Position numbers and translations under genes: made by a program. From a virus (Duplodnaviria; Caudoviricetes), in IMG/VR virus record IMGVR_UViG_3300020375_000001, positions 96,001-160,000 of that record: a stretch of DNA of 64,000 nucleotides; one strand, 5' to 3'. Below the pieces are notes generated by a model. The model was not told where the DNA came from and searched no databases. It worked only from the letters and a program-made list of their open reading frames with translations. Below are positions 1,283-18,287 of the stretch, piece after piece. Each line of letters begins with the position of its first letter. Position 1 is the stretch's first letter.

Positions 1283-2149
1283 ATGGGTCAGTTACTATAC
1301 GAGAAAACCGTTAAGTTCGATAGTAAGGCCGGTAAGCTTGCTCACTCTGGTTTCCTATCTCGTTCAGATGCAATCACTGAATCGAATAAGATATACAAGT
1401 ACTTGGAAAAGCGTTGTGCTGAACTGAGACGCAAATTGTCCTATGACCTTTCCTACAATGGTTTCCCCCGTGACTTGATTGTTACCGAAGCCTTTGGTGG
1501 GCATGGTTGTTTGGTTATTCACCCTGCCGACGATGACTTTACAATTAAATTGTTAAAAGGTTGCGGTAAAGGTGAACGCGACTTTGACTTCCTGAGCGTA
1601 AAGAAAGATAAGTACTCTCTGTTTGATGCAGAACATCCAGCGAAGAAAGTGGTTATCCTGCCGGGTACTAACTTACTGTGTCGTATGTCACCGAATGTTA
1701 TTAAAGGGATGAACAAGCCAGGGGTTTACTTTAAGCCTCACCCAATCACCACTGAGTTCTACATTCGTGAAATCGAATCGTTCGTTGGCCGTGATAAACT
1801 TATCCATAAGCTGGCCTCAGGTGCTAAGGTACTTGAAAATGCGGATGAGGTTTGGGTATCGCGTTCTACGGAACTTGGTCTGTACGCTAAGCTGGACGGT
1901 AAAAAGGTACACACGTACAAAATCAATTACCAGAACAAAGGTAGCTATTTTGGACTGTATGACCAGATTGACCGGTTAGAAGAAGTACTTTCAACTGCAC
2001 GCTCTGGCGTCATCTTCCCAACCGATGATTACGAAGCGCAAATTGACGAGTACCTCGCCTATTACGAAGAAAGTCTTGCTGGGTATAAGCCCAAGGCTAA
2101 GCCACGCGTAAACCAGAAGAACAAGCGTAAAAGAAAGAAGAGGAAGTAA
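1283..2149 (+). CDS. KpsS/KpsC-like (Capsule_synth, GT-B) CMP-sugar transferase, candidate beta-Kdo transferase
   Basis: VYFKPHP motif followed by ASGAKVLENADEVWVSRSTELGLYAKLDGKKV, matching the 'S..ll..ad.V.t..St.glea.l.gkkV' pattern of KpsC/KpsS-type C-terminal domains; no TM or signal peptide. Confidence 0.6.
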   Translation: MGQLLYEKTVKFDSKAGKLAHSGFLSRSDAITESNKIYKYLEKRCAELRRKLSYDLSYNGFPRDLIVTEAFGGHGCLVIHPADDDFTIKLLKGCGKGERDFDFLSVKKDKYSLFDAEHPAKKVVILPGTNLLCRMSPNVIKGMNKPGVYFKPHPITTEFYIREIESFVGRDKLIHKLASGAKVLENADEVWVSRSTELGLYAKLDGKKVHTYKINYQNKGSYFGLYDQIDRLEEVLSTARSGVIFPTDDYEAQIDEYLAYYEESLAGYKPKAKPRVNQKNKRKRKKRK

Positions 2150-2152
2150 GTC

Positions 2153-3142
2153 GTGATAGTATTTACTTGTGTAGATAAAGAAAGTGAAGATGCTGCTGTT
2201 ATCTGGGCTGCCTCACTACAACAACAGTTGCTAAAGGGGACAGGTGGGGTTCGTACCTTCATCTTCCATACGGCAGATGTAGACGTATCGCGGTTTACTG
2301 ACTTCAGTGCGTTCTGTGTTTCTGTGGGTAATATGGAAGGGCAGAGTAAACAAGAGATGCTGATTCGTGTCTTGGACATGATGCACAGCCGTGGTTTTGA
2401 AGACCATGTCATGTATGCACACACTGATGTATTGTGGCAAGGGGATGTAGAAGAGATTCGCAACTGTCCTCTGGATTCAAAGTTGTGGCTGGCTGCCCGT
2501 AACGAACACGTGTACTTCGATTCAAAGCGTAATCAGAAGTTCTACCCAATGTACGATGAGGACTATCAGCGTAAAAGTACCATTGCGCCCATGGGTTACT
2601 TCAACAGTGACGTAATGATGTTGCTGATATCCGGTCTGTATCGCGCTGTGAAGCGTGCTGGCTACGCATCCTTAGAAGAACTCTATCTTGCTAAGAAAAT
2701 GTCTAAGGGCTGGTCTCCGACCGATACACTAAACTCTTTGATTACTGAGTACATCAACTTGTTTGACCGCTACAATGCCTTTACCGAAGAATATTTTGAG
2801 TTGGACTTCGGCGAGATGCTTAGTCGTCGTATGGAGATTAAGTTATCTAAACTGGTTAACTTTGTAGGGGTACACAAGCCTTGGCGTGAAACTTCGGACT
2901 TTGACCTTCCTGAGTTGGCCGGTGCTATGTATCCATTCCACCACTACTTACAAGCTTGCGATATTTACCGTACGTATATCACCAAAGATTTCTACGAACG
3001 AGTAAAAGCAAACGTACACCGTTACCGAATGATTGTTGATTGGGAACGGGACGTACTGGATGCTGCGCGACCGTTAAAGGAAAAATTGGAAAAGTTCGAT
3101 GATGACCTAAAGCAAATGATGCAGGACATCAAAGCAATCTAA
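2153..3142 (+). CDS. GT8-family glycosyltransferase
   Basis: YAHTDVLWQGDVEEI (DxD region), YFNSDVMML (YFNSGV motif), DTLN, NFVGVHKPW (H.g..KPW motif). Confidence 0.8.
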   Translation: MIVFTCVDKESEDAAVIWAASLQQQLLKGTGGVRTFIFHTADVDVSRFTDFSAFCVSVGNMEGQSKQEMLIRVLDMMHSRGFEDHVMYAHTDVLWQGDVEEIRNCPLDSKLWLAARNEHVYFDSKRNQKFYPMYDEDYQRKSTIAPMGYFNSDVMMLLISGLYRAVKRAGYASLEELYLAKKMSKGWSPTDTLNSLITEYINLFDRYNAFTEEYFELDFGEMLSRRMEIKLSKLVNFVGVHKPWRETSDFDLPELAGAMYPFHHYLQACDIYRTYITKDFYERVKANVHRYRMIVDWERDVLDAARPLKEKLEKFDDDLKQMMQDIKAI

Positions 3143-3157
3143 AAAAAAAAGATTGCC

Positions 3158-3200
3158 GACGGCATAATTAGTAGGGGCCATTGCCCCTACTTTATGCTGC
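3158..3200. terminator. bidirectional hairpin terminator with TATGCCGTC/TTTATGCTG flanks
   Basis: GTAGGGGC-CATT-GCCCCTAC hairpin between convergent genes. Confidence 0.75.
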
Positions 3201-3201
3201 T

Positions 3202-4032
3202 TTAATATAAACCATGTTTCTGTAACGCTTCTTTGATGTCAAACATTAACCCATTTCTTACACCCCGCCAATAACTATCGGAGTAGGGCCAAACGTATTC
3301 TTTAGTTACTTCGGTGATTAGTTTATTCTCAACCTTAGATAACTTACCGTTTTGTTTGTTATCAATAACCATACGCGCCAATTCCAACAGCCTTGCATCG
3401 CTGATTTCTACATTGAACGGTGGCTTGTTATCAATCTGACCTTCAACAAGTTTATTTCTAAATAACTCAGCCACGCCATACACCGGTGCATTTTTACCAA
3501 CAACCGTAATTGGCCTTGCACCTTTAGGTGGGAATATAATGCAGGTCTCCGGATTACGTGGATTGGGCACGTATTGAACCGTGGCCTTAGGTGTCTTCAA
3601 TTTACAACCTTCCAATAGATTGCGAGATGACAGTGGTGGTATTTCCAGCATTTTAGTTAAGTTATAGACAGGGTCATAGTTTATCCGATAAATAGCAACA
3701 CGAGACCCTAACATAGGTATTGCAACAATGTCGCCTGTGACCAACTTTGGCATTTTACGAGTTAATGCGACATCAAACTTGGGAAGGTCTTCTTTCTTCA
3801 TAGAGAAAAGTTCTTCCAAATTAGAATCGGCCATTATCCCAAACAAGTCACCAGTTATGTTTTCTACATCAAAGCCAACAACGTGTATTTCAGTAAGTTT
3901 AGAAATGTCCTCTGCCCAACGACTAGGGTCATCGAGAATCTTATCCATTTCTAATATATCCACAGTAGTCTTACCCGACAACTTACTGCTATCATGGTTA
4001 TAGCCACCCTCTGTTAAGATTATAAGTTTCAT
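3202..4032 (-). CDS. hypothetical protein
   Basis: 276 aa ORF with AGGAGG-like SD (AGGAAGGA). Confidence 0.7.
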   Translation of the reverse strand: MKLIILTEGGYNHDSSKLSGKTTVDILEMDKILDDPSRWAEDISKLTEIHVVGFDVENITGDLFGIMADSNLEELFSMKKEDLPKFDVALTRKMPKLVTGDIVAIPMLGSRVAIYRINYDPVYNLTKMLEIPPLSSRNLLEGCKLKTPKATVQYVPNPRNPETCIIFPPKGARPITVVGKNAPVYGVAELFRNKLVEGQIDNKPPFNVEISDARLLELARMVIDNKQNGKLSKVENKLITEVTKEYVWPYSDSYWRGVRNGLMFDIKEALQKHGLY

Positions 4033-4147
4033 TTGTTCCTTCCTGTTGTAGATAAATGAGGTATTATCCTCATTAATAATGTATGTATGTAATTTTATTG
4101 ATAGGGCATAAACAGGGGTTCCCTAGGGAACCCCTACCTATGTCGTT

Positions 4148-4690
4148 TTAACGATATTGTACTTCTACTTCATACCCTATAGCAATACGAAGATGCTCGA
4201 TAATTTTAGCATCCGGTGCTCCCTTCTTTATTTCCTTAGCAACTATGTACCAAGGAAGAGAACCTTTCATGTTACCAGATGTGGTAATCTTAGACAGCAC
4301 AGTTCCTCTCTCAATTTTATCCCTAATGAGAACTATAGCGGAACGGACGTGTAGTGGACTGTGGCGCATACCACCAAACGCCATGTGGGCAATGTGACTA
4401 ATGTCAGGACCAGTTATTTTATCAAGCCAAGGTACGATGGATAGCGCTGGTTTAGTATCTTCCGTTAAAAAACGGCTGCACTCTTTTTCTAAAGCTTCCT
4501 GCCACGATGCATTATGCACATCCGTAGGGTCACTCAACTTATCCAAACGAGGTAAAATATCCTCTGCAACATGGTTAAGGATTTCGGCATTGAAATTTTC
4601 TAACTGCATGTCCCACACTAGAGTAGCCAGTGTACTTTTAATGTTGGCAATAGCAACTGCTTCTAAGATTTTATCGGCATCGATAATCAT
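4148..4690 (-). CDS. hypothetical protein
   Basis: 180 aa ORF. Confidence 0.65.
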   Translation of the reverse strand: MIIDADKILEAVAIANIKSTLATLVWDMQLENFNAEILNHVAEDILPRLDKLSDPTDVHNASWQEALEKECSRFLTEDTKPALSIVPWLDKITGPDISHIAHMAFGGMRHSPLHVRSAIVLIRDKIERGTVLSKITTSGNMKGSLPWYIVAKEIKKGAPDAKIIEHLRIAIGYEVEVQYR

Positions 4691-4720
4691 TGTTCTTCTT
4701 ACCTTTTATTTAAGTATCAT

Positions 4721-5194
4721 TTAATCCAGATAACTGGCATAACGCAAAACTTCACTGTACCCATCGATAAACCCTTTGGTACCAAACGAAGTAGGGCCTA
4801 AGTGAACCACAGTCTTCGTTAGAAACTCATCGATGATGTACTTTGTCTCATTTTTATATTTAGGCCAGAGTTTAACGACATTGTCATCACACTCGCCTTC
4901 GTAAGTAATGATTCTACCATTAACATCCCAGACATTCGGGTATCTGTCGGTGTCTAATAGAGCACATACGTTTTTGTCGGAGTCTTCGTCACCGTTAACT
5001 ACAATAATCTCAACGCGCATTTCTTTGTCGTAAAACAAACGTATCGTGATACCATAGCCAGCCGGACTGACACGGGACGGAGATTCAAAGACCACATCTT
5101 TAACACGTTCCCACTTCTGTGGCTTCAAAGGGCCGGAAGAACCAGCAGCAAAGGAAAACAAAAGTAGTACGATAGTGAGTTGGAATTTAAACAT
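4721..5194 (-). CDS. exported protein with N-terminal signal peptide
   Basis: MFKFQLTIVLLLFSFAAGS: basic n-region, hydrophobic h-region, AxG-type cleavage site. Confidence 0.65.
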   Translation of the reverse strand: MFKFQLTIVLLLFSFAAGSSGPLKPQKWERVKDVVFESPSRVSPAGYGITIRLFYDKEMRVEIIVVNGDEDSDKNVCALLDTDRYPNVWDVNGRIITYEGECDDNVVKLWPKYKNETKYIIDEFLTKTVVHLGPTSFGTKGFIDGYSEVLRYASYLD

Positions 5195-5206
5195 ACACCG
5201 AGCCTT

Positions 5207-5656
5207 TTAGTTGGGTTGATAGAAATGTACAGTGATACCATCTTGGCATAAGTGACGTTCCACCAGGGGTAGAACATCATCTATAACCAAACCGCCAGCA
5301 CCGCACCCCAGGGGTGGGACATGTAGAGTTTTAATTGGGCTACGTGGTAAACAGCGACTAAACTTGTATAGCACATTGTCCACCCACTCTACCCTACTGC
5401 CGTGACGCCACTCATATTTAGTCGGAACTAACATAAGTCCATAGTCATCACGTAACAAGTAGAAGTCCAATGTGAGTAAGTTGAAGTTACCAGACTTACA
5501 ACGTTTCCGATAACTCTGATATACCAGTGGGAACCTTTCCTTACATTCTTTAGCAAGTCCAAGTCCCATTACTCCCTCACAATTCACAGGAATAAGGACA
5601 ATCCCGGTTTTAGTTTCCCAGATGTCTTTTCCTTTCTCTATAATGAGTTTACCCAC
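5207..5656 (-). CDS. macro domain (ADP-ribose glycohydrolase, DarG/TARG1-like)
   Basis: LIPVNCEGVMGLGLAKECKERFP and LHVPPLGCGAGGL motifs. Confidence 0.9.
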   Translation of the reverse strand: MGKLIIEKGKDIWETKTGIVLIPVNCEGVMGLGLAKECKERFPLVYQSYRKRCKSGNFNLLTLDFYLLRDDYGLMLVPTKYEWRHGSRVEWVDNVLYKFSRCLPRSPIKTLHVPPLGCGAGGLVIDDVLPLVERHLCQDGITVHFYQPN

Positions 5657-5674
5657 ACTGTCTCCATAGGTTAC

Positions 5675-6511: not shown

Positions 6512-6607
6512 GCGCTTGCAGAACCTTTATATATGAACTTTAGACAACCATAAGTTGGATGCCCCTACAAAGGTAAAGCGTCCCGAGTAAAAAACGTAGG
6601 TATTATA

Positions 6608-7986: not shown

Positions 7987-8247
7987 ATGGATGGTTACAT
8001 CGCACCAGAACAACTTGGGTTCTGGATGAACTATGGTGGTCTTATTGTAGACCTTAGCGTAAAAGTAGTAATTGCAATGTTCGGTCTTTGCATTTCTTAC
8101 TTTGCACTTATCTTTATTCAAAGCAGAGACAAACGTCTTGTTGAAATCAGGGAGAAATGGGATGGTACAGCTCAAGCTATTTATCGCGGTCTTACTATTG
8201 TCGGTATCTGCATTCTCATGGGGTTCATCCTTTCCGCGCCAATATGA
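7987..8247 (+). CDS. two-TM membrane protein, holin-like
   Basis: GGGAG SD; two hydrophobic helices separated by a charged loop; overlaps the lytic transglycosylase gene. Confidence 0.55.
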   Translation: MDGYIAPEQLGFWMNYGGLIVDLSVKVVIAMFGLCISYFALIFIQSRDKRLVEIREKWDGTAQAIYRGLTIVGICILMGFILSAPI

Positions 8248-8731
8248 CCCATACTTCAAGGCAGCAGCAAAATACCTTCCGCCTGGAATGACGTGGCAAC
8301 AACTTAAAGCTCAGTGTTATCAGGAGTCTCGTCTGAATCCTAAGGCAGTGAGTCCGGTTGGCGCACAGGGTCTGTGTCAGTTCATGCCGGGGACGTGGAA
8401 AGAAATGATGAAGTACGGGTTGAACAATCCGTGGAATCCTGCACAGTCTATTCGGGCTGCTGCCATCTACATGTCTTACCAACATCGGTTCTGGTCTAGT
8501 GAAAGACCGTGGATTGACAGAAGTATGCTAGCCACCGCTAACTATAATGCAGGTGGTGGCAACATGCTTAAGGCACAGAGAAAATGTCCGGGGAGTATCC
8601 TGTACAATGAAGTGGTAAAGTGCTTACCTGAGATTACAGGGAGGCATAGCAGGGAGACCATCGATTACGTATGGCTCATTCACTTCAAATGGTATCCAGC
8701 TATCTTAGCCGATGATGGATATAAGCCATAA
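8162..8731 (+). CDS. lytic transglycosylase (SLT family) with signal peptide, probable endolysin
   Basis: QESRLNPKAVSPVGAQGLCQFMPGTW and ANYNAGGGN motifs. Start reassigned from 8072 to ATG 8162, which has an AGGGAG SD 8 nt upstream and gives MVQLKLFIAVLLLSVSAFS. Confidence 0.85.
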   Translation: MVQLKLFIAVLLLSVSAFSWGSSFPRQYDPYFKAAAKYLPPGMTWQQLKAQCYQESRLNPKAVSPVGAQGLCQFMPGTWKEMMKYGLNNPWNPAQSIRAAAIYMSYQHRFWSSERPWIDRSMLATANYNAGGGNMLKAQRKCPGSILYNEVVKCLPEITGRHSRETIDYVWLIHFKWYPAILADDGYKP

Positions 8732-8775
8732 CGACATAAAGCAGAGGGTCATTGCGACCCTCTTATTTTTTTGTC

Positions 8776-9006
8776 TTACCAGTTACTAAAGACCCAGAAT
8801 GGACTCATGATTATGGAAACTACTATAACGGTGAGGAGCATGTCCTTAAATATCACCCACCACTTTTCTTCATGGTGGGTATACCCGTTACAACAACCAC
8901 TGAACTCAGAAGTACATTTTCCTTGCTGGTAGTTGATGCAGGTTTTGCACCTGCTCATATCTTTGACTTGTCTGTTTACTGCTATACCACTGATGATATT
9001 ATTCAT
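8776..9006 (-). CDS. small Cys-rich protein with C-terminal TM helix
   Basis: CKTC..C...CC cluster, then a hydrophobic tail. Confidence 0.55.
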   Translation of the reverse strand: MNNIISGIAVNRQVKDMSRCKTCINYQQGKCTSEFSGCCNGYTHHEEKWWVIFKDMLLTVIVVSIIMSPFWVFSNW

Positions 9007-9349
9007 ACTGACACATATCCATTATTATTTCTGTTTCGTCTGTTAACTCAAACTTAGGAAATAACTGGAGTATACGGTAAATGAATGCACCTGCGTCCCC
9101 ATGGTCGGTTATGTATTCCAGTACTGCTGTATCAGAACTCACGTCGACCTCATCCACTCGCCAACTATTTACCATCTGTTCACGCATGGATTCAATGCTA
9201 CCTAGGCAAGACACTGGTAATTCAGTCTTTACCGGTAACATTCTCTTTTCCCCAAACAATGGTCCAAAATACTCCTTGAACCATTCTCGTATATCGCAGG
9301 GTAGCGTATCCCATCTAATCAACACTACTTTCTTACTCACTATTCCCAT
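8999..9349 (-). CDS. hypothetical protein
   Basis: 116 aa ORF, GGAG SD, 8 nt overlap with the next gene. Confidence 0.6.
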   Translation of the reverse strand: MGIVSKKVVLIRWDTLPCDIREWFKEYFGPLFGEKRMLPVKTELPVSCLGSIESMREQMVNSWRVDEVDVSSDTAVLEYITDHGDAGAFIYRILQLFPKFELTDETEIIMDMCQYE

Positions 9350-9633
9350 ACAAGCTAACTCCAGAGGGTTGGTAAACCTTATTATTCCTTTGTCCTTTAC
9401 CTATACCGCATGAGTAACGAATATCCTGTTAGTTACCGCTATTCATACGGCTCTTGTGACCTGTACAGCTATTACCAGTCGTGAGGGTTTTTACACAGCA
9501 ACGTTACCACTCTCCCCTCATGCAATTAAAGAGCTCGTTATTTTTTGGAACGACGGCATAAAGGGCGGATAGCCCGCCCCTTACGTGTAGCATAATTACA
9601 ATCTGTTAAGACGAGGTTTGCCCTAGTGTCTGG

Positions 9634-10380
9634 TTATGACGCGGACTTACAACCTATTCGGTCTGCTATCAGAGCAGACTCCTTTATGGTTGGCAGTTGA
9701 TAAGGCAAAACCTTTTGTAATTCCACAATAGCAATTTGAGTTGCGCAGTACATAGTACCTAACTCAATGGACTGTTCCATCAGAAACGCCACGCCACCCG
9801 AATCATCGTACACCAACTTATAGTATCCGGATGGCACGACATGATATTCATCTGCGCTGGGCAGCTTGGGCATCTCCTTACCGTAAACCGGACCTGCGAT
9901 GACATAGAATTCATGTTCGTATTGGGCTGCATACTTAACGGCGTCTTCCAATTCCCGCCACACACCTCGATTGAGGGTTTGGTTTTGTGGAACGACATTA
10001 CTCATGTAATCCAACTCATGCCGGTAGTGCGAACCATAGTGGGCTGCCGACGGCGCAAGGTGTCCCCTGTCCGCTTCCAACTCACTGGCGTTTGCACTTT
10101 TATAGTCAGATACCTCTAAGGTTTCATCACTTGGTAGGTCAGGGTCACTACGGAAAGCTCTTCCCGTTGGTGCACCATAGTTAACCGGATTAACCTCATA
10201 GGCTACCCAATTGGCAAATTTAGTTGTGGGATTGTTAGAGAGCGCGTAGACATGACGATAGATTACCGTTGAGCCTTCCGGGTTCTCAGGACATCCTTGA
10301 GGACAGTGCACTGAAATAGTCGAGGCCATTGCTGGCAAAGACATAACCAGAAACACCATTGCTGAAATAATACATTTCAC
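9634..10380 (-). CDS. secreted DNA/RNA non-specific endonuclease (NucA/EndoG family)
   Basis: DRGHLAP active-site motif, NVVPQNQTLNRGVWRELE, N-terminal signal peptide ending in AMA|S. Confidence 0.92.
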   Translation of the reverse strand: MKCIISAMVFLVMSLPAMASTISVHCPQGCPENPEGSTVIYRHVYALSNNPTTKFANWVAYEVNPVNYGAPTGRAFRSDPDLPSDETLEVSDYKSANASELEADRGHLAPSAAHYGSHYRHELDYMSNVVPQNQTLNRGVWRELEDAVKYAAQYEHEFYVIAGPVYGKEMPKLPSADEYHVVPSGYYKLVYDDSGGVAFLMEQSIELGTMYCATQIAIVELQKVLPYQLPTIKESALIADRIGCKSAS

Positions 10381-10420
10381 GATAATGCTCCTTAACTAAA
10401 TGAACGAAGTTGTTCATATA

Positions 10421-10780
10421 TTAGGCTGTATGTATCTTAGCTAAAGCAGCAGTTATTGGCCTACTGCTCTCAGGAGCTATATGGACAATAGAAAATTTAT
10501 GGGGATTCATCCTCACCCATAAGTTGTACAGGATGTCGTAGAAGTAATAATGGTGGTCACCTCTACGTTTTGCAATGTACGTTGGAGTTGGTTTACGGAA
10601 TACATACCTCAACCATTCCAAACAATCCGTTGTGGGTACTGGGAAAGCTTCGTTCTCGCCATACACAGGGATATGTACTAATGATGCAACTCCGCTGATT
10701 TCGTTTATGACGTAAACTGATTCTACTTCCGTGCTTCTTTGTTTCATGACGCACCCCCAAAAAAAAATAAGTCGATTCAT
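10421..10780 (-). CDS. hypothetical protein
   Basis: 119 aa ORF; the real start is probably the second Met. Confidence 0.5.
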   Translation of the reverse strand: MNRLIFFWGCVMKQRSTEVESVYVINEISGVASLVHIPVYGENEAFPVPTTDCLEWLRYVFRKPTPTYIAKRRGDHHYYFYDILYNLWVRMNPHKFSIVHIAPESSRPITAALAKIHTA

Positions 10781-10821
10781 AAAAAATAAAGGGAGCCGAA
10801 GCTCCCTTGTATTTATGTCAC

Positions 10822-12336
10822 TTATTCACCACAGGTAGACAGACTGCTTGTACCGCCAGTCCAAGTACCACACTGCTTAGTCCAAGTACCATCTGGATTG
10901 TAAGTAGTTACTTCATACACGTCTTGGTCGTTGTGCATGTGAACTTCTTGCGTCGCATTCCAGAACTCTTCAGAAGAGTAACGGTTATCAATGCGATACC
11001 AGCTGTCGGCGTCGTAGCCATAGTCATCTTCAAAGCTCAGAGAGATGTGAGACAGGGCGCTAGATAACCAGCCACCGCTTAAGTCTTGCGCATCTGCACC
11101 AATCATTGATTCAAACTTGTATACGTTCTCAGCGCCGTACGAGTGACCTGATTCAGTTTTAACAGTTTCGTTATCACTGTAGTAAGTTTTAGTCATCAGC
11201 ATTTGTGAAACATTCAGAGCCACGCGGTCCATAGTCAGACAGTTGCTCCATCCCACATTTTCCGCAGACGCAATATTCACCAGCGCATAACCAACACCGT
11301 CACCTTTCTCAGTGAAGTATTCAGAGATAGTACATTGACCATCTTCTAAGTTAGCGGCAACTTCTACTTCCAGACCACTGGCGTTAGTAGTACGTTGCTG
11401 ACGGCGATAAAGCTCCTTACCCTTTTTGTTCAGGCCTTGCTCCATGTTGTTACCGATTTCATCCCAGTTACCCGCACTCTGTTGAACGAATTCACGACGT
11501 GACCAGTTCTGACCACGAGTCGCTGACTCATCCTTAAAGTAGTATTCTACGAACGCTACACGAGAGTTAGGGTTTGCTTTTTCCAGCGCTACTGAATCGG
11601 CATAACCTTTAGTCAGGCCAGGTACCAAGCTTTTCGCCAAACCGTGCAGAGCGTTGTCCCCGCCTTTGACATAGTCAGAGTACAGGTCTTTCACTTTACG
11701 GTTGTAACGTTTAGCCACACGCTTTTCCTGCGCTTCCAGACGAGCGATTACACCCTTACGGATGGTTTCACTTTCGATAACAGATTCACAGGTAAGTTCT
11801 TCGCCGTCTTTGGCAAGTTCACGTTCAATGTGTTTCCACACAACTGAAGTCAGAGGCGTAACGTTACGCATGTCTTGTTGAGAAGTGATTGCAAACGAAG
11901 GTGGTACTGTCATGTAGTACTCTTCAGTGATTGGATTCTCAGGGTCATCCAAATCAACTGCACCTACTGGTACATGGGTTACCAGAGGAACGTACTGACC
12001 GCAGTCTTCGTGAACGTCTGGGATTTCAATTACGAAACCAGGGTTATCCGCAGTGGGCTCTGTAGTCACGGTACTTGGTTCGCCTTCATCGTATTTACCG
12101 TTGAAGTTCAAGTCCATGAAGATAGTGGCACCGACGATATAACCGTCGATTACGTTACCAGAGATTGTTACTGGCTCCTTGTCAGGAGTAGAAGTCGCCG
12201 GTGGTGGAGTTACCGCTGTTGGGGTTTCTGCCTTAGTGTCAGAACCACCGCCACCACAAGCTGTTAAAGTAAGTGCAACTGCGGCAGTCAGGATTGATTT
12301 ATTAAATAATGATTTCATGTTTTCTTTTCCTTTCAT
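10822..12336 (-). CDS. Vibrio-type outer-membrane lipoprotein
   Basis: Lipobox LTAC followed by a GGGGS linker and a Thr/Pro stretch, then SGNVIDGYIVGATIFMDLNFNGKYDEGEP; likely start at 12318. Confidence 0.8.
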   Translation of the reverse strand: MKGKENMKSLFNKSILTAAVALTLTACGGGGSDTKAETPTAVTPPPATSTPDKEPVTISGNVIDGYIVGATIFMDLNFNGKYDEGEPSTVTTEPTADNPGFVIEIPDVHEDCGQYVPLVTHVPVGAVDLDDPENPITEEYYMTVPPSFAITSQQDMRNVTPLTSVVWKHIERELAKDGEELTCESVIESETIRKGVIARLEAQEKRVAKRYNRKVKDLYSDYVKGGDNALHGLAKSLVPGLTKGYADSVALEKANPNSRVAFVEYYFKDESATRGQNWSRREFVQQSAGNWDEIGNNMEQGLNKKGKELYRRQQRTTNASGLEVEVAANLEDGQCTISEYFTEKGDGVGYALVNIASAENVGWSNCLTMDRVALNVSQMLMTKTYYSDNETVKTESGHSYGAENVYKFESMIGADAQDLSGGWLSSALSHISLSFEDDYGYDADSWYRIDNRYSSEEFWNATQEVHMHNDQDVYEVTTYNPDGTWTKQCGTWTGGTSSLSTCGE

Positions 12337-12378
12337 GTAAAGAAATTGTTTATGGTTATAGTTAATTAAGTAACTACT

Positions 12379-12396: not shown

Positions 12397-12468
12397 TCTG
12401 ATGATATTTGGAATCGACTCTAGACGGCATAGAAGAGAGCCTGGCGGACTCTCAACTATACGAAGCTT

Positions 12469-12627: not shown

Positions 12628-12687
12628 GACTTTCTACTCCAAAGTGATTTATCGTGCAAGAGGATTCAACCCTCTCATACTATCACC

Positions 12688-13137
12688 CTAGACGAACAGG
12701 TTTTTATATCCATCAAATCGCATTGAGGTAAAATCCCTACCCACAATGTAATGGTCAGTTAAAAAGATATCTAGCGGGTGAAGTACCTGCCTAATCTTTT
12801 TAGTTAACTCAATATCAAAGCGAGAAGGCATCGAGTCCTTAAAAGGATGGGAGTGCACCAAGGCCAAATTAATAGCTTTATGCTTTAGCGCAGACTCCAC
12901 GATGGGTCGACAATATGCGGTTACCTTATCCACAGTACCAAAGAACAATTCTTCATAGGCAATGACATGGTGGTTATGTCCCATGAGAATGACACCAAAG
13001 ACCTCGCGGTCATGTTGATGCATCTTGCACTCTAGGTACTTGCGAATATGCTCAGGTCCACTAAGACGCTGTCCTTGGATATTTCTATCAAAGACTATCT
13101 TAGCTGCACGTTCAAGTATCTCGTCATCCGTAAGCAT
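12688..13137 (-). CDS. radC: RadC-family JAB domain protein
   Basis: REVF ... HSHP ... PSRFDIELT metal-binding pattern. Confidence 0.9.
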   Translation of the reverse strand: MLTDDEILERAAKIVFDRNIQGQRLSGPEHIRKYLECKMHQHDREVFGVILMGHNHHVIAYEELFFGTVDKVTAYCRPIVESALKHKAINLALVHSHPFKDSMPSRFDIELTKKIRQVLHPLDIFLTDHYIVGRDFTSMRFDGYKNLFV

Positions 13138-13139
13138 GG

Positions 13140-13337
13140 TTACTTCTTCTTACGGCTTGCTTTACGTGCTTTCTTCTGTACCGACCGTTTCTTTTTGGTA
13201 GCACTGCTTGCACCGGGTTTAACATACGCCTGACGCTGACTGGTGCCATATAAAGGTGAATGACTTAACCCAGCTGCAATTGCAGCCATCATAGCAGCTT
13301 GATGTGACATGTTGTGTACCCTACCTTTTGTCATCAT
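13140..13337 (-). CDS. small basic protein (start probably at MSHQ)
   Basis: K/R-rich C-terminus. Confidence 0.55.
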   Translation of the reverse strand: MMTKGRVHNMSHQAAMMAAIAAGLSHSPLYGTSQRQAYVKPGASSATKKKRSVQKKARKASRKKK

Positions 13338-13488
13338 GGCGATAGTCCAAATCTAACGGAATGGTCTCGCCACTGGTTTTAATAATAGGTGGAAGGTCCA
13401 CCGGTTTCTTTTTCTTTTTAACTTCCCCATGTTCGGGGTGATGGTACGGGGAACTATGTCCCCGCCCATACAAGTTGTTTATTGACAT
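13321..13488 (-). CDS. 55 aa hypothetical protein (not in ORF track)
   Basis: MSINNLYGRGHSSPYHHPEHGEVKKKKKPVDLPP...HDDKR*; fills the gap directly after the upstream stop. Confidence 0.5.
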   Translation of the reverse strand: MSINNLYGRGHSSPYHHPEHGEVKKKKKPVDLPPIIKTSGETIPLDLDYRHDDKR

Positions 13489-13489
13489 A

Positions 13490-14695
13490 TTACTTTTCCA
13501 AGTCCCGTAGCCATCCAGTGAAGAAATCGCTCAAGGGTTTCTCCGGTGTTTCGGTAAACTTAAACGTTAGTTCCTTCTTATCCATCAGGTCAGCAACTAC
13601 AACATCTTGCTGGTCATGGACACTGGCTAACATGCCACCTATGGCAAATTGTCCAAGGACCGTTTCGCTGGGATAATCTACAAGAGTGGTTACCACTGGT
13701 ATATCACCTGGGATGTCGACCAATGATGTATCGGTGAATGGAAAGTGGTCCATATGAAACATGGGTGTGGTGTGACCACGTCCAATGTCGGGGTTTAAAG
13801 GTTGAGGAGTCTCAGTTGTAAAACAACCGTCGCGATTAATAACCTGATTACCGTACACCCCGTGAAGTTGAAGCTTTTTAGGCTTTAACTTTTTGGTTTC
13901 AGGGTCAAACTCAACCGGTTCAACGTGTTTCCAATCGGTAGGGGTATTACGTCCTTCCATACCAAACATCTCAGCGTTACGTTCAGCACGATAAGCATTG
14001 GATTCTTCTTCAGTATCGCTAAAGCAACGCCAAGAGTTACCCAAGTCTTCAAATGTACAAAGCTTAACGGCAAGGACATCATACTCGCTAATTTGCACAC
14101 CTTCTTCGGAATGGAATGCATCGGCATTGGGATAACAGCACTTGTGAATAGTCCCATCCTTCAACATGACATCATACGTGTCTTTAAATCGCCATGAATT
14201 GTAGGCAACCCAAACACCAAAATCATCAGGACGGTGTGTCCAGTGAGTGTAATCTTCTTTACCTTCAGGTGACCACTCTATTCCCAGCTGGGTTATGTCG
14301 CCAGACTCTATAGGAGGCTTAGGACGCTCGTAAGAGATGTTAGGGTCGGTCATTACACCCGTTTCAATCTTAAGCTTGTCAGACGCCTCTCTGTCCGCCT
14401 GAGACTGTGCTTCATTTTTCCACAGTTTGATTTCACTGATACGGTTAGCCAGTTTAGCGTAGTCGCCAACTCCCAACATGTCATCGGTGGCAATATCAAC
14501 CGCCTTATGGGACTGTAGTCGTTTACGGCTAGACCATGGGCCATAGTGTAGACAACCACCACAAAACCAATGGTTCTTTGGTAACATCATGTAATCGGTT
14601 TTACCCTGAAGACTCATGCCTTTTCGAGTATTGAAGATAGCAGGGTTGTCACAAGCCGGACAAAGACTAATTATTTTTCCACCTTTACTAAGCAT
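13490..14695 (-). CDS. hypothetical protein with N-terminal zinc ribbon
   Basis: CPAC ... CGGC. Confidence 0.65.
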   Translation of the reverse strand: MLSKGGKIISLCPACDNPAIFNTRKGMSLQGKTDYMMLPKNHWFCGGCLHYGPWSSRKRLQSHKAVDIATDDMLGVGDYAKLANRISEIKLWKNEAQSQADREASDKLKIETGVMTDPNISYERPKPPIESGDITQLGIEWSPEGKEDYTHWTHRPDDFGVWVAYNSWRFKDTYDVMLKDGTIHKCCYPNADAFHSEEGVQISEYDVLAVKLCTFEDLGNSWRCFSDTEEESNAYRAERNAEMFGMEGRNTPTDWKHVEPVEFDPETKKLKPKKLQLHGVYGNQVINRDGCFTTETPQPLNPDIGRGHTTPMFHMDHFPFTDTSLVDIPGDIPVVTTLVDYPSETVLGQFAIGGMLASVHDQQDVVVADLMDKKELTFKFTETPEKPLSDFFTGWLRDLEK

Positions 14696-15230
14696 ACGTT
14701 ACTCCTTTTAAGTCAATCAACTGAACCTTGTGGTCAGCAAAACACGTTGCATAACTCCACTCGTCTATATCTAACGATGTGGCCAGTACGAATTGGGGGA
14801 TACCCTCCAAACCACCGTTACGACTAATCCACTCCAAATATTGGTAGATGTCTTCGCGATAAAAGTAGTCGTCTACGATGACGATATCGTAGTCTTTGAA
14901 GTTTTCCGGTAACTCCCCAGCAGCGAACCCTATAGGGTTTTTAAAGGAACCCCAGCTCACAACCTTACCCTTTTCTATTTCTTTTGTTGCGGCTTCGTTG
15001 TTGCCAAGGTACAACACTTTCTTACCCATATGTTTGGCCATAAAAGTTGCACCCAACATTACAGCAGTGGTAGTACCTTCCTGTCTACCCATAACTACAG
15101 CGAGGTGTTTACCCCGTGTCATCATCTTAGCGATGGTAACTTGCTCAGGTTTAGGGAACTGCTCCATTATAAGGTGGGAGTATTTAATGGGGTGTGCACC
15201 TAAAACCTCATCGATACTTTTAAAAGACAT
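14688..15230 (-). CDS. small terminase/helicase-like P-loop domain with degenerate Walker A
   Basis: LAVVMGRQEGTTT (cf. RQxGKS/T) and DIVIVDD Walker B-like. Confidence 0.45.
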   Translation of the reverse strand: MSFKSIDEVLGAHPIKYSHLIMEQFPKPEQVTIAKMMTRGKHLAVVMGRQEGTTTAVMLGATFMAKHMGKKVLYLGNNEAATKEIEKGKVVSWGSFKNPIGFAAGELPENFKDYDIVIVDDYFYREDIYQYLEWISRNGGLEGIPQFVLATSLDIDEWSYATCFADHKVQLIDLKGVTYA

Positions 15231-15242
15231 CTTCGTTTCCTT

Positions 15243-15797
15243 CTACCACACGTTACCTGCTGCATATACTGCCTTGGTGACAATACTAGTCGGGTCGCAG
15301 TAATCGGTATCGTGGTTTATAATTTTAACGTAAGGGTTTAGTGCTTGTTGGTACTCCCCAGCAAATACTATTTCCCTGCTACGTATCGAGTAGTGAATTT
15401 CACGCAAAGCGTAATACGGCATGGAGGCAAACACTTGGTTATATAAATGTTCAATTCCATACCAAAGTTTGTTTGTACAGTCTTCCGCTCTATCGCCCTG
15501 TAGGAAAGAGATTGCCTTATACTGCACATAACTCCACCCACCAAAATCATTCACCACATTTCCCATGGCGTCGCGAACTGCCAATGCTTTTCGCAGGCAC
15601 ATCTCAACAAGGGTACACATGACTTCATCTTCTAGTCGGTTAACAGTAATGTCGTTTGCATATATACTCGGCAGAAAAGAAAGTGTCGCAACGACAATCG
15701 ATTTGCCGTTGGACATTTTCTCAATCTCTTCCATAGTACCTATTGCTAACGTCATTGAAGGGTCAATAACTTTGACCCGACAGTTCCGTATTCTCAT
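15243..15797 (-). CDS. hypothetical protein
   Basis: 184 aa ORF in a tightly packed operon. Confidence 0.6.
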   Translation of the reverse strand: MRIRNCRVKVIDPSMTLAIGTMEEIEKMSNGKSIVVATLSFLPSIYANDITVNRLEDEVMCTLVEMCLRKALAVRDAMGNVVNDFGGWSYVQYKAISFLQGDRAEDCTNKLWYGIEHLYNQVFASMPYYALREIHYSIRSREIVFAGEYQQALNPYVKIINHDTDYCDPTSIVTKAVYAAGNVW

Positions 15798-15808
15798 AGG
15801 TTTTCCTG

Positions 15809-16534
15809 TTAGGGGTTGTGACGAATGTGGAACTCCGCGTTTTGTACAGCTTTGATGGCCGACTCAACAGATTCGTGCTTTTCCAGTTCGTCACTGGTGG
15901 TTAGGTCGCAGTTATATATCCAACCTTCATCATCCAGTGTCAGGTAGGTATACAACGGACTACTTAATTCGATATCGTCGAGTGATTGTTCGATGAGAAT
16001 CCCAACTTCCTGGGTGTGAGGAACCATCCAAGGGAGAGCGTCTATCGTACGTTTAACGTAGATGTCCCCTTTGTGATTAAACAACAGTTCCTCTATTGAA
16101 AGTTTATGGTCCCACTTAGAAGAAGCTTTGTTAACGACTGGCAGGGTCATATCCAAGAAGTGTTCATACTTGGTTGGCTGACGAAGTGAAGCCTTGAATA
16201 CCTTTTTGAACGTTGGGGCACCTTTGAAGCTACCACCAGCTTGATAACTAATCAGGTTAGATATCTTGAGTTCCGCACCTTCTTTCATAGGTTCCAGAAT
16301 TTCATGGATGTCCAGTTCAACCACCCACATTACACGAGCGTATCCCCGATGCGGACTTGGTAGCAATACGACCTCGTCAATGTAGCCCCATAAAGTTTCT
16401 TCCTCTAAACAAGGATGGTCCACTTTACATTTTTCGCCTTCGGTACGTTTTAATAATTCTGCGAAGGCATTGGTTGTTAGTCTTTCAAAGTGTAAAGACA
16501 CCTGTTCTCCACTAACGTCAATATGGAAAGACAT
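15809..16534 (-). CDS. hypothetical protein
   Basis: 241 aa ORF, GGGAGAG SD. Confidence 0.65.
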   Translation of the reverse strand: MSFHIDVSGEQVSLHFERLTTNAFAELLKRTEGEKCKVDHPCLEEETLWGYIDEVVLLPSPHRGYARVMWVVELDIHEILEPMKEGAELKISNLISYQAGGSFKGAPTFKKVFKASLRQPTKYEHFLDMTLPVVNKASSKWDHKLSIEELLFNHKGDIYVKRTIDALPWMVPHTQEVGILIEQSLDDIELSSPLYTYLTLDDEGWIYNCDLTTSDELEKHESVESAIKAVQNAEFHIRHNP

Positions 16535-16551
16535 ACGTCCACTCTCCCTTT

Positions 16552-17508
16552 TTATTTTTGTACAACACCCACCACGTTGTTATTTTCAACAACAATCAAG
16601 CGGGTAACTTTATTCGATTCCATGATATCCAAGGCATCGCCAAAGCGAGTACCCTTTTCTACTGTTATTGGGTTCTTGGTCATGAAATCAAAAATGTGGT
16701 TACCAATAGGTTCGTTTACGCTGGCTTGCAAACAACGGCGTAAGTCGCCGTCGGTTATAATCCCTTTAAGGTCCTCTGATGTACCCACTAAGGCCAAGCC
16801 AAGTTTACACCTACTCATACTCCAAACGATGTCACCAAAGTCTGTCTCTGTAGTTACAAAAGGTAACTCCTCAGAAACCATGACATCTTCGACTTTATAC
16901 AGTAGCTTCTTCCCTAAAGACCCACCCGGATGAAACCGAGCAAAATCCTCAGGTTGGAAATCCCGTGCCTTTAAAAGGGCAACGGTTAGCGCATCACCTA
17001 AAGCCATAGTGGCGGTGGTAGATGCAGTAGGGGCTAGTTGTAAAGGACAGGCCTCTCTACTAACCCCTGAACGTAAGCTAAAGTTCGCAGCTCTAGCTAA
17101 CGTATTGGTGTGGCTTTGTGTAAACGAGATAATGGTGTTTTTATTACCCTCTAAGAAAGATAGTAACTTTAACACTTCTTCGGTTTCTCCCGAATTACTC
17201 AAGGCCAGAAAGATGTCATCGGGATGGACCATTCCTAAATCACCATGGAATGCTTCACCCGGATGCATAAAGAAGGAAGGGGTGCCGGTAGATGCTAGAC
17301 TAGCTGCAATCTTTTTACCCACAATACCTGATTTACCCATACCGCAGACAATCACACGACCCTTGGTATTAAGGATAGCGTCTACTGCGTCGCTGAAGCA
17401 CTGGGCATCCAACGTAAGATTCTTTGCCAACTCTTGTAGACCATCGACTTCGGTAAGGATTGCTTTAAGTCCATGAACGGTTGACTTTGGAACAGCTGGT
17501 TTTGACAT
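16552..17508 (-). CDS. kdsD: arabinose-5-phosphate isomerase (KdsD/KpsF/GutQ; SIS + 2 CBS)
   Basis: VCGMGKSGIVGKKIAASLASTGTPSFFMHPGEAFHGDLG, SNSGET, LAPTASTT, FARFHPGGSLG, GIITDGDLRR. Confidence 0.96.
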   Translation of the reverse strand: MSKPAVPKSTVHGLKAILTEVDGLQELAKNLTLDAQCFSDAVDAILNTKGRVIVCGMGKSGIVGKKIAASLASTGTPSFFMHPGEAFHGDLGMVHPDDIFLALSNSGETEEVLKLLSFLEGNKNTIISFTQSHTNTLARAANFSLRSGVSREACPLQLAPTASTTATMALGDALTVALLKARDFQPEDFARFHPGGSLGKKLLYKVEDVMVSEELPFVTTETDFGDIVWSMSRCKLGLALVGTSEDLKGIITDGDLRRCLQASVNEPIGNHIFDFMTKNPITVEKGTRFGDALDIMESNKVTRLIVVENNNVVGVVQK

Positions 17509-18287
17509 TAGGATAATTCCGTACGTTTTAAGAGTTCACGATAGTCCTCTTCTGTATCAATCCCCTTACAGGGTTCAGTACAAGCAGTAACTACCTTGAT
17601 TGACATACCGTGTTCCAACGCCCTTAGCTGTTCAAGCTGCTCGACATCTTCCAGTGACGATGTTGGTAATGCCCCATACTTCTTTAAAGCACCCACGGTG
17701 TATCCATAAATACCTACATGTCTGTAATATTTATATTGCTTCAAAGGCGTACGTAGATACGGTACAGCAGCTCTTGAGAATAGCAATGCCTTGTTATCGG
17801 CAGTGGTGATAACTTTAACCACGTTTGGATTGAGGGCTTCCTCGGCAGTCTTGATGGGCGTTTGGAGTGTGGCAATGTCACAATCCGTTTCCATCATTTC
17901 ACTGATTAGCTGTTTAATCAATTCCGGCGGCATCTCAGGTTCATCACCCTGGACGTTAATAACAATGTCGTTGTCGTTTAACTTAAGTATCTTTGCCGCT
18001 TGAATAATCCGGTCGGTTCCGGATTTATGCTTTGCACTAGTGACAACCGTGGGAACACCGTAACGGTACATTGCGTCTGTAATAGCACTGTGGTCAGTAG
18101 CGACATAGACATTACGTCTTGACAGCCCTGCATTACGACACGCACTATATACGTGGGATACCATAGGCTTACCGTTGACTGGTAGTACAGGTTTACCGGG
18201 TAAGCGCTGCGACTGCATTCTTGCTGGGATAATGGCCACCACTCTGGGCGGCTTAATCCCTAATAGTTTTCTAATTAGTTGTTTCAT
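17508..18287 (-). CDS. kdsB: CMP-Kdo synthetase (3-deoxy-manno-octulosonate cytidylyltransferase, KdsB/KpsU)
   Basis: IIPARMQSQRLPGKP, SGTDR, INVQGDEP, RHVGIYGY, EQLEQLRALEHG, GIDTEED; stop overlaps the kdsD start. Confidence 0.96.
   Translation of the reverse strand: MKQLIRKLLGIKPPRVVAIIPARMQSQRLPGKPVLPVNGKPMVSHVYSACRNAGLSRRNVYVATDHSAITDAMYRYGVPTVVTSAKHKSGTDRIIQAAKILKLNDNDIVINVQGDEPEMPPELIKQLISEMMETDCDIATLQTPIKTAEEALNPNVVKVITTADNKALLFSRAAVPYLRTPLKQYKYYRHVGIYGYTVGALKKYGALPTSSLEDVEQLEQLRALEHGMSIKVVTACTEPCKGIDTEEDYRELLKRTELS

Follow-up and report, generated by a model that had tools for sequence, protein, structure and literature searches.

A phage-specific GT-B family distantly related to capsule Kdo transferases as a candidate partner of phage-encoded CMP-Kdo synthesis

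Kdo is considered a Gram-negative envelope sugar, found in the LPS core and in capsule linkers. What, then, might enzymes of CMP-Kdo synthesis do in a phage whose genome also encodes two glycosyltransferase-like proteins? The initial annotation of the window analyzed here, a 64,000-nucleotide stretch of a 207,748-bp phage record, held that the phage carries the kpsF/kpsU/kpsS-C subset of group 2 capsule loci and builds a Kdo-containing glycan. The present study supports this interpretation in part: the gene subset and the co-occurrence of the GT family with KdsB in other viruses are supported, whereas the assignment of a beta-Kdo transferase is not established. The features concerned are as follows.

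913-1278, plus strand: coiled-coil-like ORF of 121 aa from the ORF list, 4 nt upstream of the GT-B gene
1283-2149, plus strand: P0001, compact GT-B protein of 288 aa (fold model, structure search, profile-profile alignment, motifs)
2153-3142, plus strand: P0002, GT8-like GT-A protein of 329 aa, 3 nt downstream of the GT-B gene
16552-17508, minus strand: kdsD/kpsF, arabinose-5-phosphate isomerase with SIS and two CBS domains (KpsF/GutQ subfamily HMM)
17508-18287, minus strand: kdsB/kpsU, CMP-Kdo synthetase (equivalog-level HMMs)
18354-18377, minus strand: terminator-like hairpin just upstream of kdsB (consensus scan only)

The genes for P0001, P0002, KdsD, and KdsB were all found where they had first been placed, as two pairs on opposite strands separated by 13 kb of unrelated genes, among them a weak macro-domain match, an SLT transglycosylase, a non-specific endonuclease, and a RadC-like JAB protein. 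The ORF at 913-1278 opens a plus-strand island of three genes and gave only weak coiled-coil-type matches in Pfam (DUF16, 2.6e-05, below the cut-off). A Megablast comparison of the first 20 kb with GenBank phages returned no match.

KdsB is a member of its family at the equivalog level (TIGR00466, 3.5e-69, 232.8 bits against a cut-off of 155.2; NF003952, 279 bits against 193; both NCBIfam) and also matches PF02348 in Pfam (2.2e-55). KdsD belongs to the KpsF/GutQ subfamily (TIGR00393, 3e-100, 335 bits against 203.7) and has the expected architecture, with a SIS domain (4.6e-26) and two CBS stretches; it scores below the equivalog cut-offs of both KdsD (310 vs 505 bits) and GutQ (265 vs 481 bits). 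The kdsB stop and the kdsD start have one base in common, in TAATG, as the coupled arrangement described earlier had it. The hairpin upstream of kdsB suggests that the two genes open their own transcription unit, which may continue into four ORFs at 13490-16534; no bidirectional terminator turned up after 3142 in this consensus scan. None of these four matched Pfam or NCBIfam, and a protein-atlas search with 15809-16534 and 15243-15797 returned nothing usable. Among the closest bacterial KdsD relatives recovered by a peptide-pattern search, a biased sample, 15 of 42 lie in loci with KpsC/KpsS, and there a kpsU-like gene stands directly upstream of a kpsF-like gene, which is the phage gene order and makes the parallel with capsule loci closer than the initial annotation had drawn it. 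These relatives point loosely to Proteobacteria; given the bias of the search, no host is assigned.

The absence of kdsA and kdsC, first noted for the window, extends to the whole 207,748-bp record, in which KdsA and KdsC HMMs returned nothing at E up to 1 and no Capsule_synth match was found. WaaA, GT2, GT4, and NeuB were likewise not found in this record, nor was any other recognizable glycosyltransferase or nucleotide-sugar pathway elsewhere in the phage genome. TM-like segments are missing from all four proteins (maximum Kyte-Doolittle 19-residue mean, 1.19), in agreement with the annotation of both glycosyltransferases as lacking them.

P0001 itself divided the HMM and structure searches that had been suggested for it. 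It has no Pfam or NCBIfam match, including at the gathering score of Capsule_synth (PF05159), whereas structure searches place KpsC, WbbB, and KrkA at or near the top. Its AF2 model (pLDDT 81) has the two-domain, Rossmann-like GT-B fold that had been predicted. When 48,161 chains were searched exhaustively with VIA, Kdo transferases took ranks 1, 2, 3, and 5 (KpsC 6mgb, Z 8.8, 213 residues aligned; WbbB 5fa0, Z 8.1; KpsC 6mgd, Z 7.9; KrkA 9yfx, Z 6.8), with sialyltransferases ranking after them; the KpsC, WbbB, and KrkA alignments cover both domains, revealing a modified GT-B fold. The same proteins again head the Foldseek list, most of the matching AFDB clusters are named capsule polysaccharide biosynthesis proteins, and a KpsS/LipB (Capsule_synth) cluster in the ESM Atlas matches with a TM of 0.66 over 248 residues. 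Structural support is moderate: Z lies between 7 and 9, and Foldseek E-values are about 1e-3. A 108-member family profile was aligned by hhalign with KpsC-C (97% probability, E 1e-10), KpsC-N (95%, E 4e-8), and KpsS (83%, E 1e-5), reversed and unrelated controls staying below 1%, and KpsC was the only PDB sequence that the family profile reached. These alignments pair KPHP with KxHP, S-E-x-G with S-x-x-G-F-E, and D-K110-Y with the lysine of the KpsC "KYN," which we take from a residue-number offset to be Lys133. In KpsC, Lys133 binds the Kdo adduct (PMC10148158).

The family to which P0001 belongs is phrog_26179, which is confined to phages and comprises at least 342 clusters at 50% identity. 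Profile and model comparisons indicate that this previously unnamed, phage-specific family is distantly related to capsule Kdo transferases. Within it, K-x-H-P (K151-P-H153-P154 in P0001, the KPHP motif of the initial annotation) aligns with KpsC KxHP and is invariant (108 of 108 members), while K110, D55, G128, N130, and E197 are kept in at least 105 of the 108, a pattern typical of a conserved active site; in P0001 itself, K110 is followed by Y111, and E197 follows (S/T)196. The leading weak Pfam matches within the family are to Capsule_synth (sub-threshold in 7 of 108 members, best E 0.006) and to the polysialyltransferase model A-2_8-polyST (six members, best E 2e-4). A family paralogue encoded in the same phage genome has lost KxHP and lies between two very large ORFs. 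The polybasic C-terminal tail of P0001 was considered as a family-wide clue to the acceptor and rejected: a net charge of at least +6 in the last 25 residues occurs in only 3 of 108 members.

Retaining beta-Kdo transferases are defined by QxxxD, whose Gln binds the Kdo carboxylate while its Asp acts as covalent nucleophile (PMC10148158, PMC12887879). G128-T-N130 occupies this place in P0001: the family motif after the first C-domain strand is L-P-G-(S/T)-N (G128 in 107 of 108 members, N130 in 106), there is no conserved acidic residue at this position across the 108 members, and hhalign sets the QxxxD Asp of KpsC opposite a gap in the family profile. As QxxxD is replaced by G-(S/T)-N, P0001 is, judged by its sequence motifs, not a member of GT107, GT99, or GT140, and its stereochemistry is not predictable. 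The description of this protein as a beta-Kdo transferase like KpsS/KpsC is thus not established: with the Asp nucleophile missing, neither linkage nor mechanism can be read from the resemblance.

The neighboring P0002 had been called a GT8 enzyme. Its Pfam match to GT8 (PF01501) is sub-threshold (E 0.0028; 17.7 bits against a cut-off of 24.3), and the GT8-type YFNS and KPW motifs are kept. The model is mediocre (pLDDT 65) and shows a GT-A fold, and all of its top 50 Foldseek matches belong to GT8/GT24 or to related retaining GT-A enzymes (E 2e-6 to 6e-5), including UGGT, LgtC, glycogenin, GlyE, and Skp1 alpha-galactosyltransferase. LgtC and glycogenin bind Mn2+ through an intact DxD and the HxxGxxKPW histidine. 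In P0002 the DxD reads H-T-D, with DTD, DTH, TVD, and STD as the other readings among eight homologues, and the His corresponds to an Asn (Asn236) that is invariant in P0002 and these homologues, the KPW being retained; the metal-binding motif is degraded. P0002 has the GT-A fold of GT8 enzymes but scores below the Pfam gathering cut-off and lacks an intact DxD and His. A P0002-type gene always adjoins the GT-B gene in genomes G001-G003 and is confined to the jumbo clade. A GT8 as the general partner of the P0001 family was rejected, being missing from all seven clade II records.

Among other viruses, the independent distribution of GT and kds genes that would have refuted the initial annotation was not observed: KdsB accompanies the family far more often than background would give. 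Few phages carry KdsB (7 of 50,697 GenBank records; at least 327 matching stretches among 2.9 million IMG/VR contigs), yet a cytidylyltransferase is present in 8 of 50 family-bearing viral records, including all four that are at least 90% complete, rates that are rough because most family records lacking KdsB are fragments. For all eight cytidylyltransferases the best match is a KdsB model, four scoring above the cut-off of their own best-matching NCBIfam KdsB model, and NeuA/PseF/LegF-type models matched none at E <1e-10, bar one marginal PseF match. KdsA was found in 6 of 10 relatives tested, and the four complete family-bearing records all carry both KdsB and KdsA. The two family clades, deeply split and about 25% identical, differ in their kds subsets (KdsB with KdsD versus KdsB with KdsA), and L174 has the family gene co-directional with KdsB and KdsA within 4 kb. 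The co-occurrence in two clades and the L174 block make CMP-Kdo the likely donor of the family. Phage kds genes also occur without the family, in 38 of 43 KdsB-bearing viral records, including seven of the eight that are at least 90% complete. KdsB was not found at E 1e-5 in the cultured family-bearing phages Lullwater, Cr30, DLP6, and KVP40. Homologues in Lullwater, Cr30, and DLP6 adjoin tail-fiber or neck genes, and the morphogenesis module holds homologues upstream of the terminase and portal genes at more than 60 metagenomic loci. KVP40-type matches were discounted as evidence of context, covering only the C-domain and lying amid metabolic genes.

The explanation that we consider probable, though far from certain, is a phage Kdo module in which KdsD and KdsB feed CMP-Kdo to P0001, a CMP-Kdo-using GT-B. 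What the analysis shows is the identity of the genes, the fold, the remote homology, the motifs, and the co-occurrence; the donor, the mechanism, and the acceptor are inferred. Alternatively, the two gene pairs could be functionally unrelated, kdsB-kdsD being ordinary AMGs that maintain or change the supply of Kdo for host LPS or capsule during infection and the GT-B and GT8 proteins doing other work with host-made donors. The dispersal of the pairs on opposite strands, the many KdsB-bearing records without the family, and the treatment of phage kdsA/kdsB as cell-wall modification AMGs (PMC12801897) fit such a separation; it is nevertheless unlikely, given the presence of KdsB and KdsA in every complete family-bearing record, the physical clustering in L174, the repetition of the association in two divergent clades with different kds subsets, and the lack of any other candidate CMP-Kdo user in the genome.

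The identity of the sugar bears on a further alternative, that P0001 is a CMP-sugar transferase for another host-made ulosonic acid (sialic, pseudaminic, or legionaminic). KpsC homologues can take other CMP-ulosonic acids, as in a Pse transferase, and KxHP is common to sialyltransferase families (PMC12887879), which come next after the Kdo transferases in the structure search; the polysialyltransferase matches of six members and a missing QxxxD reminiscent of inverting sialyltransferases point the same way. However, the genome lacks NeuB, every co-occurring cytidylyltransferase best matches KdsB (the marginal PseF match aside), KdsA accompanies the family, and the best structural and profile matches are Kdo enzymes, which leaves this alternative very unlikely. 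Slimmer still is the chance that P0001 is no enzyme but a structural or assembly factor of fibers that has retained a GT-B-like nucleotide-binding fold: the position of homologues beside fiber and neck genes and in morphogenesis modules, and the paralogue without KxHP, would suit such a factor, but the invariance of K-x-H-P and the near-invariance of K110, D55, G128, N130, and E197 are typical of an active site.

In the Kdo module, KdsD (KpsF-type) and KdsB would boost CMP-Kdo synthesis at its first and last steps, the host would provide KdsA and KdsC, and P0001, a soluble, compact GT-B, would consume the CMP-Kdo. Its family would have ancestry and CMP-binding (K/R)xHP machinery in common with KpsC/KpsS (GT107), WbbB (GT99), and KrkA (GT140). 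The replacement of QxxxD by G-(S/T)-N, together with the invariant N-domain Asp55, makes the covalent Asp-Kdo double-displacement route improbable, and P0001 may work by direct displacement, like inverting sialyltransferases. In the jumbo clade, the adjoining GT8-like protein may add or receive a second sugar. With two activated-Kdo enzymes and a KpsC-related transferase in one phage, Kdo is probably attached to some acceptor. Our leading guess is a virion fiber or neck-region protein, weakly favored by the position of the cultured-phage homologues beside tail-fiber and neck genes, with an anionic lipid or an LPS/capsule intermediate a close second. DNA, a candidate prompted by the GT-B fold and the basic tail, is given low weight, being unsupported and the tail being lineage-specific.

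Stated in full, the proposal would be that a new phage family of the KxHP superfamily, fed by kdsB with kdsA or kdsD, puts Kdo on virion fiber or neck proteins without an Asp-Kdo intermediate, a tentative reading that we think rather unlikely to hold in every part. If it is true, it would provide the first case of a protein glycosylated with Kdo and the first virion decorated with this sugar, by a mechanism unlike that of all characterized KpsC-like Kdo transferases. Phage kds genes, hitherto annotated as generic host cell-wall AMGs, are now linked to phrog_26179, a large, unnamed, phage-only family whose members are homologues of capsule Kdo transferases and often stand beside fiber or neck genes. 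It is a concrete, testable candidate for phage-directed Kdo glycosylation, with cultured members in Caulobacter phages Lullwater and Cr30 and Stenotrophomonas phage DLP6, and, as a naturally occurring version of the KpsC fold that lacks the QxxxD nucleophile, it is informative on the mechanism and evolution of CMP-ulosonic-acid transferases. An acceptor that is a receptor-binding protein or host surface glycan would bear on host range, superinfection exclusion, and phage immunogenicity.

The poly-Kdo linker of group 2 capsules is assembled by the beta-Kdo transferases KpsC and KpsS (GT107, PF05159). P0001 has in common with them the modified GT-B fold, KxHP, the S-x-x-G helix, the K-Y(N) lysine, a soluble cytoplasmic nature, and KpsF- and KpsU-type genes alongside. 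It differs in its length (about 290 aa, against modules of roughly 330 aa in proteins of 400-700 aa), in having no threshold Pfam match, in G-(S/T)-N for QxxxD, and in its restriction to phages. WbbB's N-terminal domain (GT99) and KrkA (GT140), which are retaining Kdo transferases, likewise have the modified GT-B architecture and an HP motif that binds CMP, although their sequence similarity to P0001 is negligible; both rely on QxxxD and form a covalent Asp-Kdo adduct (PMC9587256, PMC12887879), whereas P0001 has no QxxxD. The inverting sialyltransferases of GT38, GT52, and GT80 resemble P0001 in (K/R)xHP, in lacking QxxxD, and in their C-terminal Rossmann domain, the only domain that aligns (Z 5.2-6.3). 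The acidic N-domain residue of P0001 could be a general base, as in these enzymes; their D/E-D/E-G motif was not identified in P0001, and the phage genomic context indicates Kdo rather than sialic acid.

Virus-encoded glycosyltransferases near structural genes, as in the P0001 family, also characterize mycobacteriophage virion and chlorovirus capsid glycosylation. The mycobacteriophage glycosyltransferases use sugars other than Kdo. No phage Kdo transferase or Kdo-modified virion was found in the literature searched; the kdsA/kdsB AMGs of cyanophage S-SCSM2R demonstrate that phages can carry Kdo synthesis genes (PMC12801897). Group 2-type capsule loci duplicate kpsF and kpsU and leave kdsA and kdsC to the housekeeping copies, and the phage duplicates the same two steps. 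In Burkholderiales-type loci, kpsU is directly upstream of kpsF and near kpsC/kpsS; the phage has the same order, at identities of about 50% (KdsD) and 43% (KdsB) to capsule-locus enzymes, with its transferase, unlike theirs, 13 kb from the kds pair. The initially recognized likeness to the kpsF/kpsU/kpsS-C subset is borne out by the gene content: an A5P isomerase, a CMP-Kdo synthetase, and a transferase resembling KpsC/KpsS, with kdsA and kdsC both missing.

The most likely reading of the genes listed below, stated with fair confidence, is that they form a phage Kdo module: CMP-Kdo would be used by a new GT-B protein, specific to phages and related to KpsC but lacking the QxxxD motif. The 207,748-bp IMG/VR virus record that carries them (G000) is bounded by direct terminal repeats, and the window covers its bases 96001-160000. 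GenBank phages include no close nucleotide relative; in IMG/VR its siblings are two records, 206 and 218 kb long, and a 148-kb record is more distantly related.

Genes of the two pairs and matches between them (window coordinates)
1283-2149, +, 288-aa GT-B protein with the motif K151-P-H153-P154 (P0001)
2153-3142, +, 329-aa GT8-like protein, 3 nt downstream of the P0001 gene (P0002)
5207-5656, -, weak macro-domain match (E 0.0012, below cut-off)
8072-8731, +, SLT lytic transglycosylase (E 1.2e-17)
9634-10380, -, DNA/RNA non-specific endonuclease (E 4.5e-32)
10822-12336, -, 504-aa ORF with a weak Ntox35 match (E 0.0011)
12688-13137, -, RadC-like JAB protein (E 1.6e-30)
16552-17508, -, arabinose-5-phosphate isomerase (kdsD) with SIS and two CBS domains (KpsF/GutQ subfamily model, 335 bits against 203.7)
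17508-18287, -, CMP-Kdo synthetase (kdsB) (TIGR00466, 232.8 bits against a cut-off of 155.2; PF02348, E 2.2e-55)

The initial annotation had proposed a phage Kdo pathway mirroring the kpsF/kpsU/kpsS(C) genes of group 2 capsule loci, and its gene observations hold: the KdsB and KdsD models are passed at the positions listed, the KdsD protein doing so at the subfamily level and passing neither the KdsD nor the GutQ equivalog model. The two genes are joined by a one-base overlap (TAATG) and preceded by a terminator-like hairpin. After kdsD, on the same strand, lie four ORFs of 241, 184, 180 and 401 aa (13490-16534, -), none with a Pfam or NCBIfam match; no strong terminator-like hairpin (at least 6 stem pairs) occurs downstream of kdsD before about 13400, and the four are possibly cotranscribed with kdsB-kdsD. 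The absence of kdsA and kdsC, noted originally for the window, extends to the whole record, where HMM searches found no KdsA, KdsC, Capsule_synth, WaaA-type GT30, GT2, GT4 or NeuB; thus, no gene of the record is recognisably related to sugars apart from the kds pair, the GT-like pair at 1283-3142 and one degenerate paralogue. Neither GT-like protein has a TM-like segment, as had been claimed, and the same is true of KdsB and KdsD.

P0001 matches no Pfam or NCBIfam model and falls in phrog_26179, whose function is unknown. Its AlphaFold model, made with 11 homologues, has two alpha/beta domains (pLDDT 81, pTM 0.80), and Foldseek against the PDB places KpsC, KrkA and WbbB first (E 8e-4 to 7e-3). 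An exhaustive structural alignment against 48,161 representative chains, which does not depend on Foldseek, put four Kdo transferases within the top five, with matches to KpsC 6mgb (Z 8.8, 213 residues), WbbB 5fa0 (Z 8.1), KpsC 6mgd (Z 7.9) and KrkA 9yfx (Z 6.8); HP-motif sialyltransferases rank after these and match the C-domain only. Those AlphaFold DB cluster matches that carry names are mostly capsule polysaccharide biosynthesis proteins, and the ESM Atlas matches are led by three clusters of viral proteins only (TM 0.80-0.82), with a KpsS/LipB (Capsule_synth) cluster from bacteria next (TM 0.66, 248 residues). Profile comparisons point to the same relatives. An exhaustive search recovered a family of 342 clusters (50% identity representatives, E up to 1e-3), nearly all of 250-320 aa; among the 108 clusters aligned, K110, K151, H153 and P154 are invariant and D55, T68, Y111, G128, N130, E197, K207, S241 and G242 at least 90% conserved. 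The only PDB sequences that the family profile reached were those of KpsC (E 0.07-0.11), the match falling on KxHP and the S-x-x-G helix after it. In hhalign comparisons with KpsC and KpsS genes taken from bacterial genomes, the family matched KpsC C-modules at 97% (E 1.2e-10), KpsC N-modules at 95% (E 3.6e-8) and KpsS at 83% (E 1e-5), with all controls (reversed KpsC/KpsS, and unrelated KdsB and GT8 alignments) below 1%. The alignment pairs the invariant D-K110-Y of the family with the lysine of the KpsC 'KYN' motif, which, judging by the offset of residue numbering, we equate with Lys133 of KpsC-N, a residue that contacts the Kdo adduct (PMC10148158).

The family departs from these enzymes in one essential feature. 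Retaining Kdo transferases of GT99, GT107 and GT140 carry an invariant QxxxD whose Asp forms a covalent Kdo adduct (PMC10148158, PMC9587256, PMC12887879), whereas the P0001 family lacks it. In genuine KpsC and KpsS the motif begins 36-40 residues before KxHP; at the topologically equivalent site, just after the first C-domain strand, the phage proteins read L-P-G-(S/T)-N, without a conserved acidic residue, and the KpsC Asp falls in an hhalign gap. Because QxxxD and its Asp are missing, P0001 is not filed as GT107; the family is homologous to GT107 enzymes and mechanistically divergent. The invariant N-domain Asp55 and the HP histidine would be compatible with direct displacement, as in inverting sialyltransferases. 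The proposal of a KpsS/KpsC-type Kdo transferase is thus upheld in structural and profile homology but not in the catalytic motif. The overall interpretation of the initial annotation is partly supported, and the observation beneath it is confirmed.

That Kdo is the donor is suggested by gene content. IMG/VR has at least 249 stretches coding for a P0001 relative, and co-occurrence among relatives, proposed earlier as a check, was found: a PF02348 cytidylyltransferase is present in 8/50 viral records carrying the family, and these eight include all four records with a completeness of 90% or more. KdsB models are the best match for each of the eight enzymes; four exceed the cut-off of the NCBIfam KdsB model that fits them best, and none matches NeuA- or LegF-type models. 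KdsA occurs in six of 10 family-bearing relatives tested, the four complete ones among them. The family splits into two clades, about 25% identical.

Kdo-related genes by clade
Clade I (jumbo), G000, G001 and G002: kdsB-kdsD and an adjacent GT8-like gene
Clade I (jumbo), G003 (54% complete): adjacent GT8-like gene and a KpsF-like match; kdsB not found
Clade II (35-70 kb genomes and fragments), G006, G008, G009, G011, G015, G029 and G079: KdsB 7/7, KdsA 6/7, GT8-like 0/7

These different Kdo gene subsets around one GT family argue for independent recruitment, which is the strongest, if indirect, evidence for a functional link between GT and kds genes. In one locus (L174, IMGVR_UViG_3300021964_000077, 654-4484) the family gene, three small ORFs, KdsB and KdsA are codirectional within 4 kb; the small ORFs (115, 176 and 188 aa) have no NCBIfam match and may encode additional parts of the pathway or of the acceptor. 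The KdsA matches of two complete clade II genomes (G006:C1:45256-46005 and G009:C1:49493-50242; records of 68-71 kb) each contain one in-frame TGA, a possible sequencing error, mark of a pseudogene or case of recoding. KdsB is rare in phages (7/50,697 GenBank records; at least 327 matching stretches in 2.9 million IMG/VR contigs), and the association is asymmetric, the family being present in only 5/43 KdsB-bearing viral records and one of the eight complete ones. Cultured phages that have a family member yielded no KdsB match; their hosts are all Gram-negative, so CMP-Kdo is presumably supplied by the host cell.

The GT8-like P0002 is accessory: its gene always adjoins the GT-B gene in clade I and is absent from clade II. 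Its Pfam match is subthreshold, its eight homologues all come from this phage clade, and its model is mediocre (pLDDT 65), but every top match is a GT8/GT24 enzyme or a retaining GT-A enzyme related to these. The protein retains the YFNS and KPW motifs; the DxD is variable (H-T-D in P0002) and the motif His is an invariant Asn. Its metal dependence is possibly altered.

As to the acceptor, gene context weakly favours a virion-associated one. The family homologue of Caulobacter phage Lullwater (gp42) lies between a tail-fibre gene and the holin, those of the T4-like phages Cr30 and DLP6 one or two genes upstream of neck proteins, and in more than 60 metagenomic loci the gene sits within the morphogenesis block, after large unannotated ORFs and before terminase and portal. 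An anionic lipid or an LPS/capsule intermediate, by analogy with KpsS, would be about as likely; P0001 has a polybasic tail specific to the jumbo clade. A further weak contextual hint towards the virion is the degenerate paralogue that G000 encodes about 40 kb past the window end (G000:C1:200439-201242, +; 267 aa; E 3.6e-8 over the C-domain). It has A-E-D-T-P in place of KxHP, lies between ORFs of 937 and 1390 aa and is followed by an ORF of 319 aa; G001 and G002 each carry this second copy too. In clade II, two large ORFs of fibre size flank a 187-aa ORF that weakly matches a methyltransferase PHROG (L007 7830-8393 and equivalents; cluster 13, 17 loci), shortly before the family gene. Neither a Kdo transferase from a phage nor a virion modified with Kdo appeared in the literature searched; phage kdsA and kdsB have been reported as cell-wall modification AMGs (PMC12801897).

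The bacterial relatives of the phage KdsD, about 50% identical to it, were recovered by a peptide-pattern search that biases which relatives appear. KpsC/KpsS-like genes lie within 10 kb in 15 of their 42 loci, mainly the best-scoring Burkholderiales ones, and there a KdsB/KpsU-like gene directly precedes the KpsF-like gene, as in the phage; within the limits of that biased search, the proposed resemblance to kpsF/kpsU is therefore supported. In the Burkholderiales loci L094-L115 (about 8500-10950 in each), the kpsU-like and kpsF-like genes are adjacent and codirectional beside kpsC/kpsS. The E. coli capsule order is kpsFEDUCS; the Burkholderiales kpsU-kpsF arrangement differs from it and matches that of the phage.
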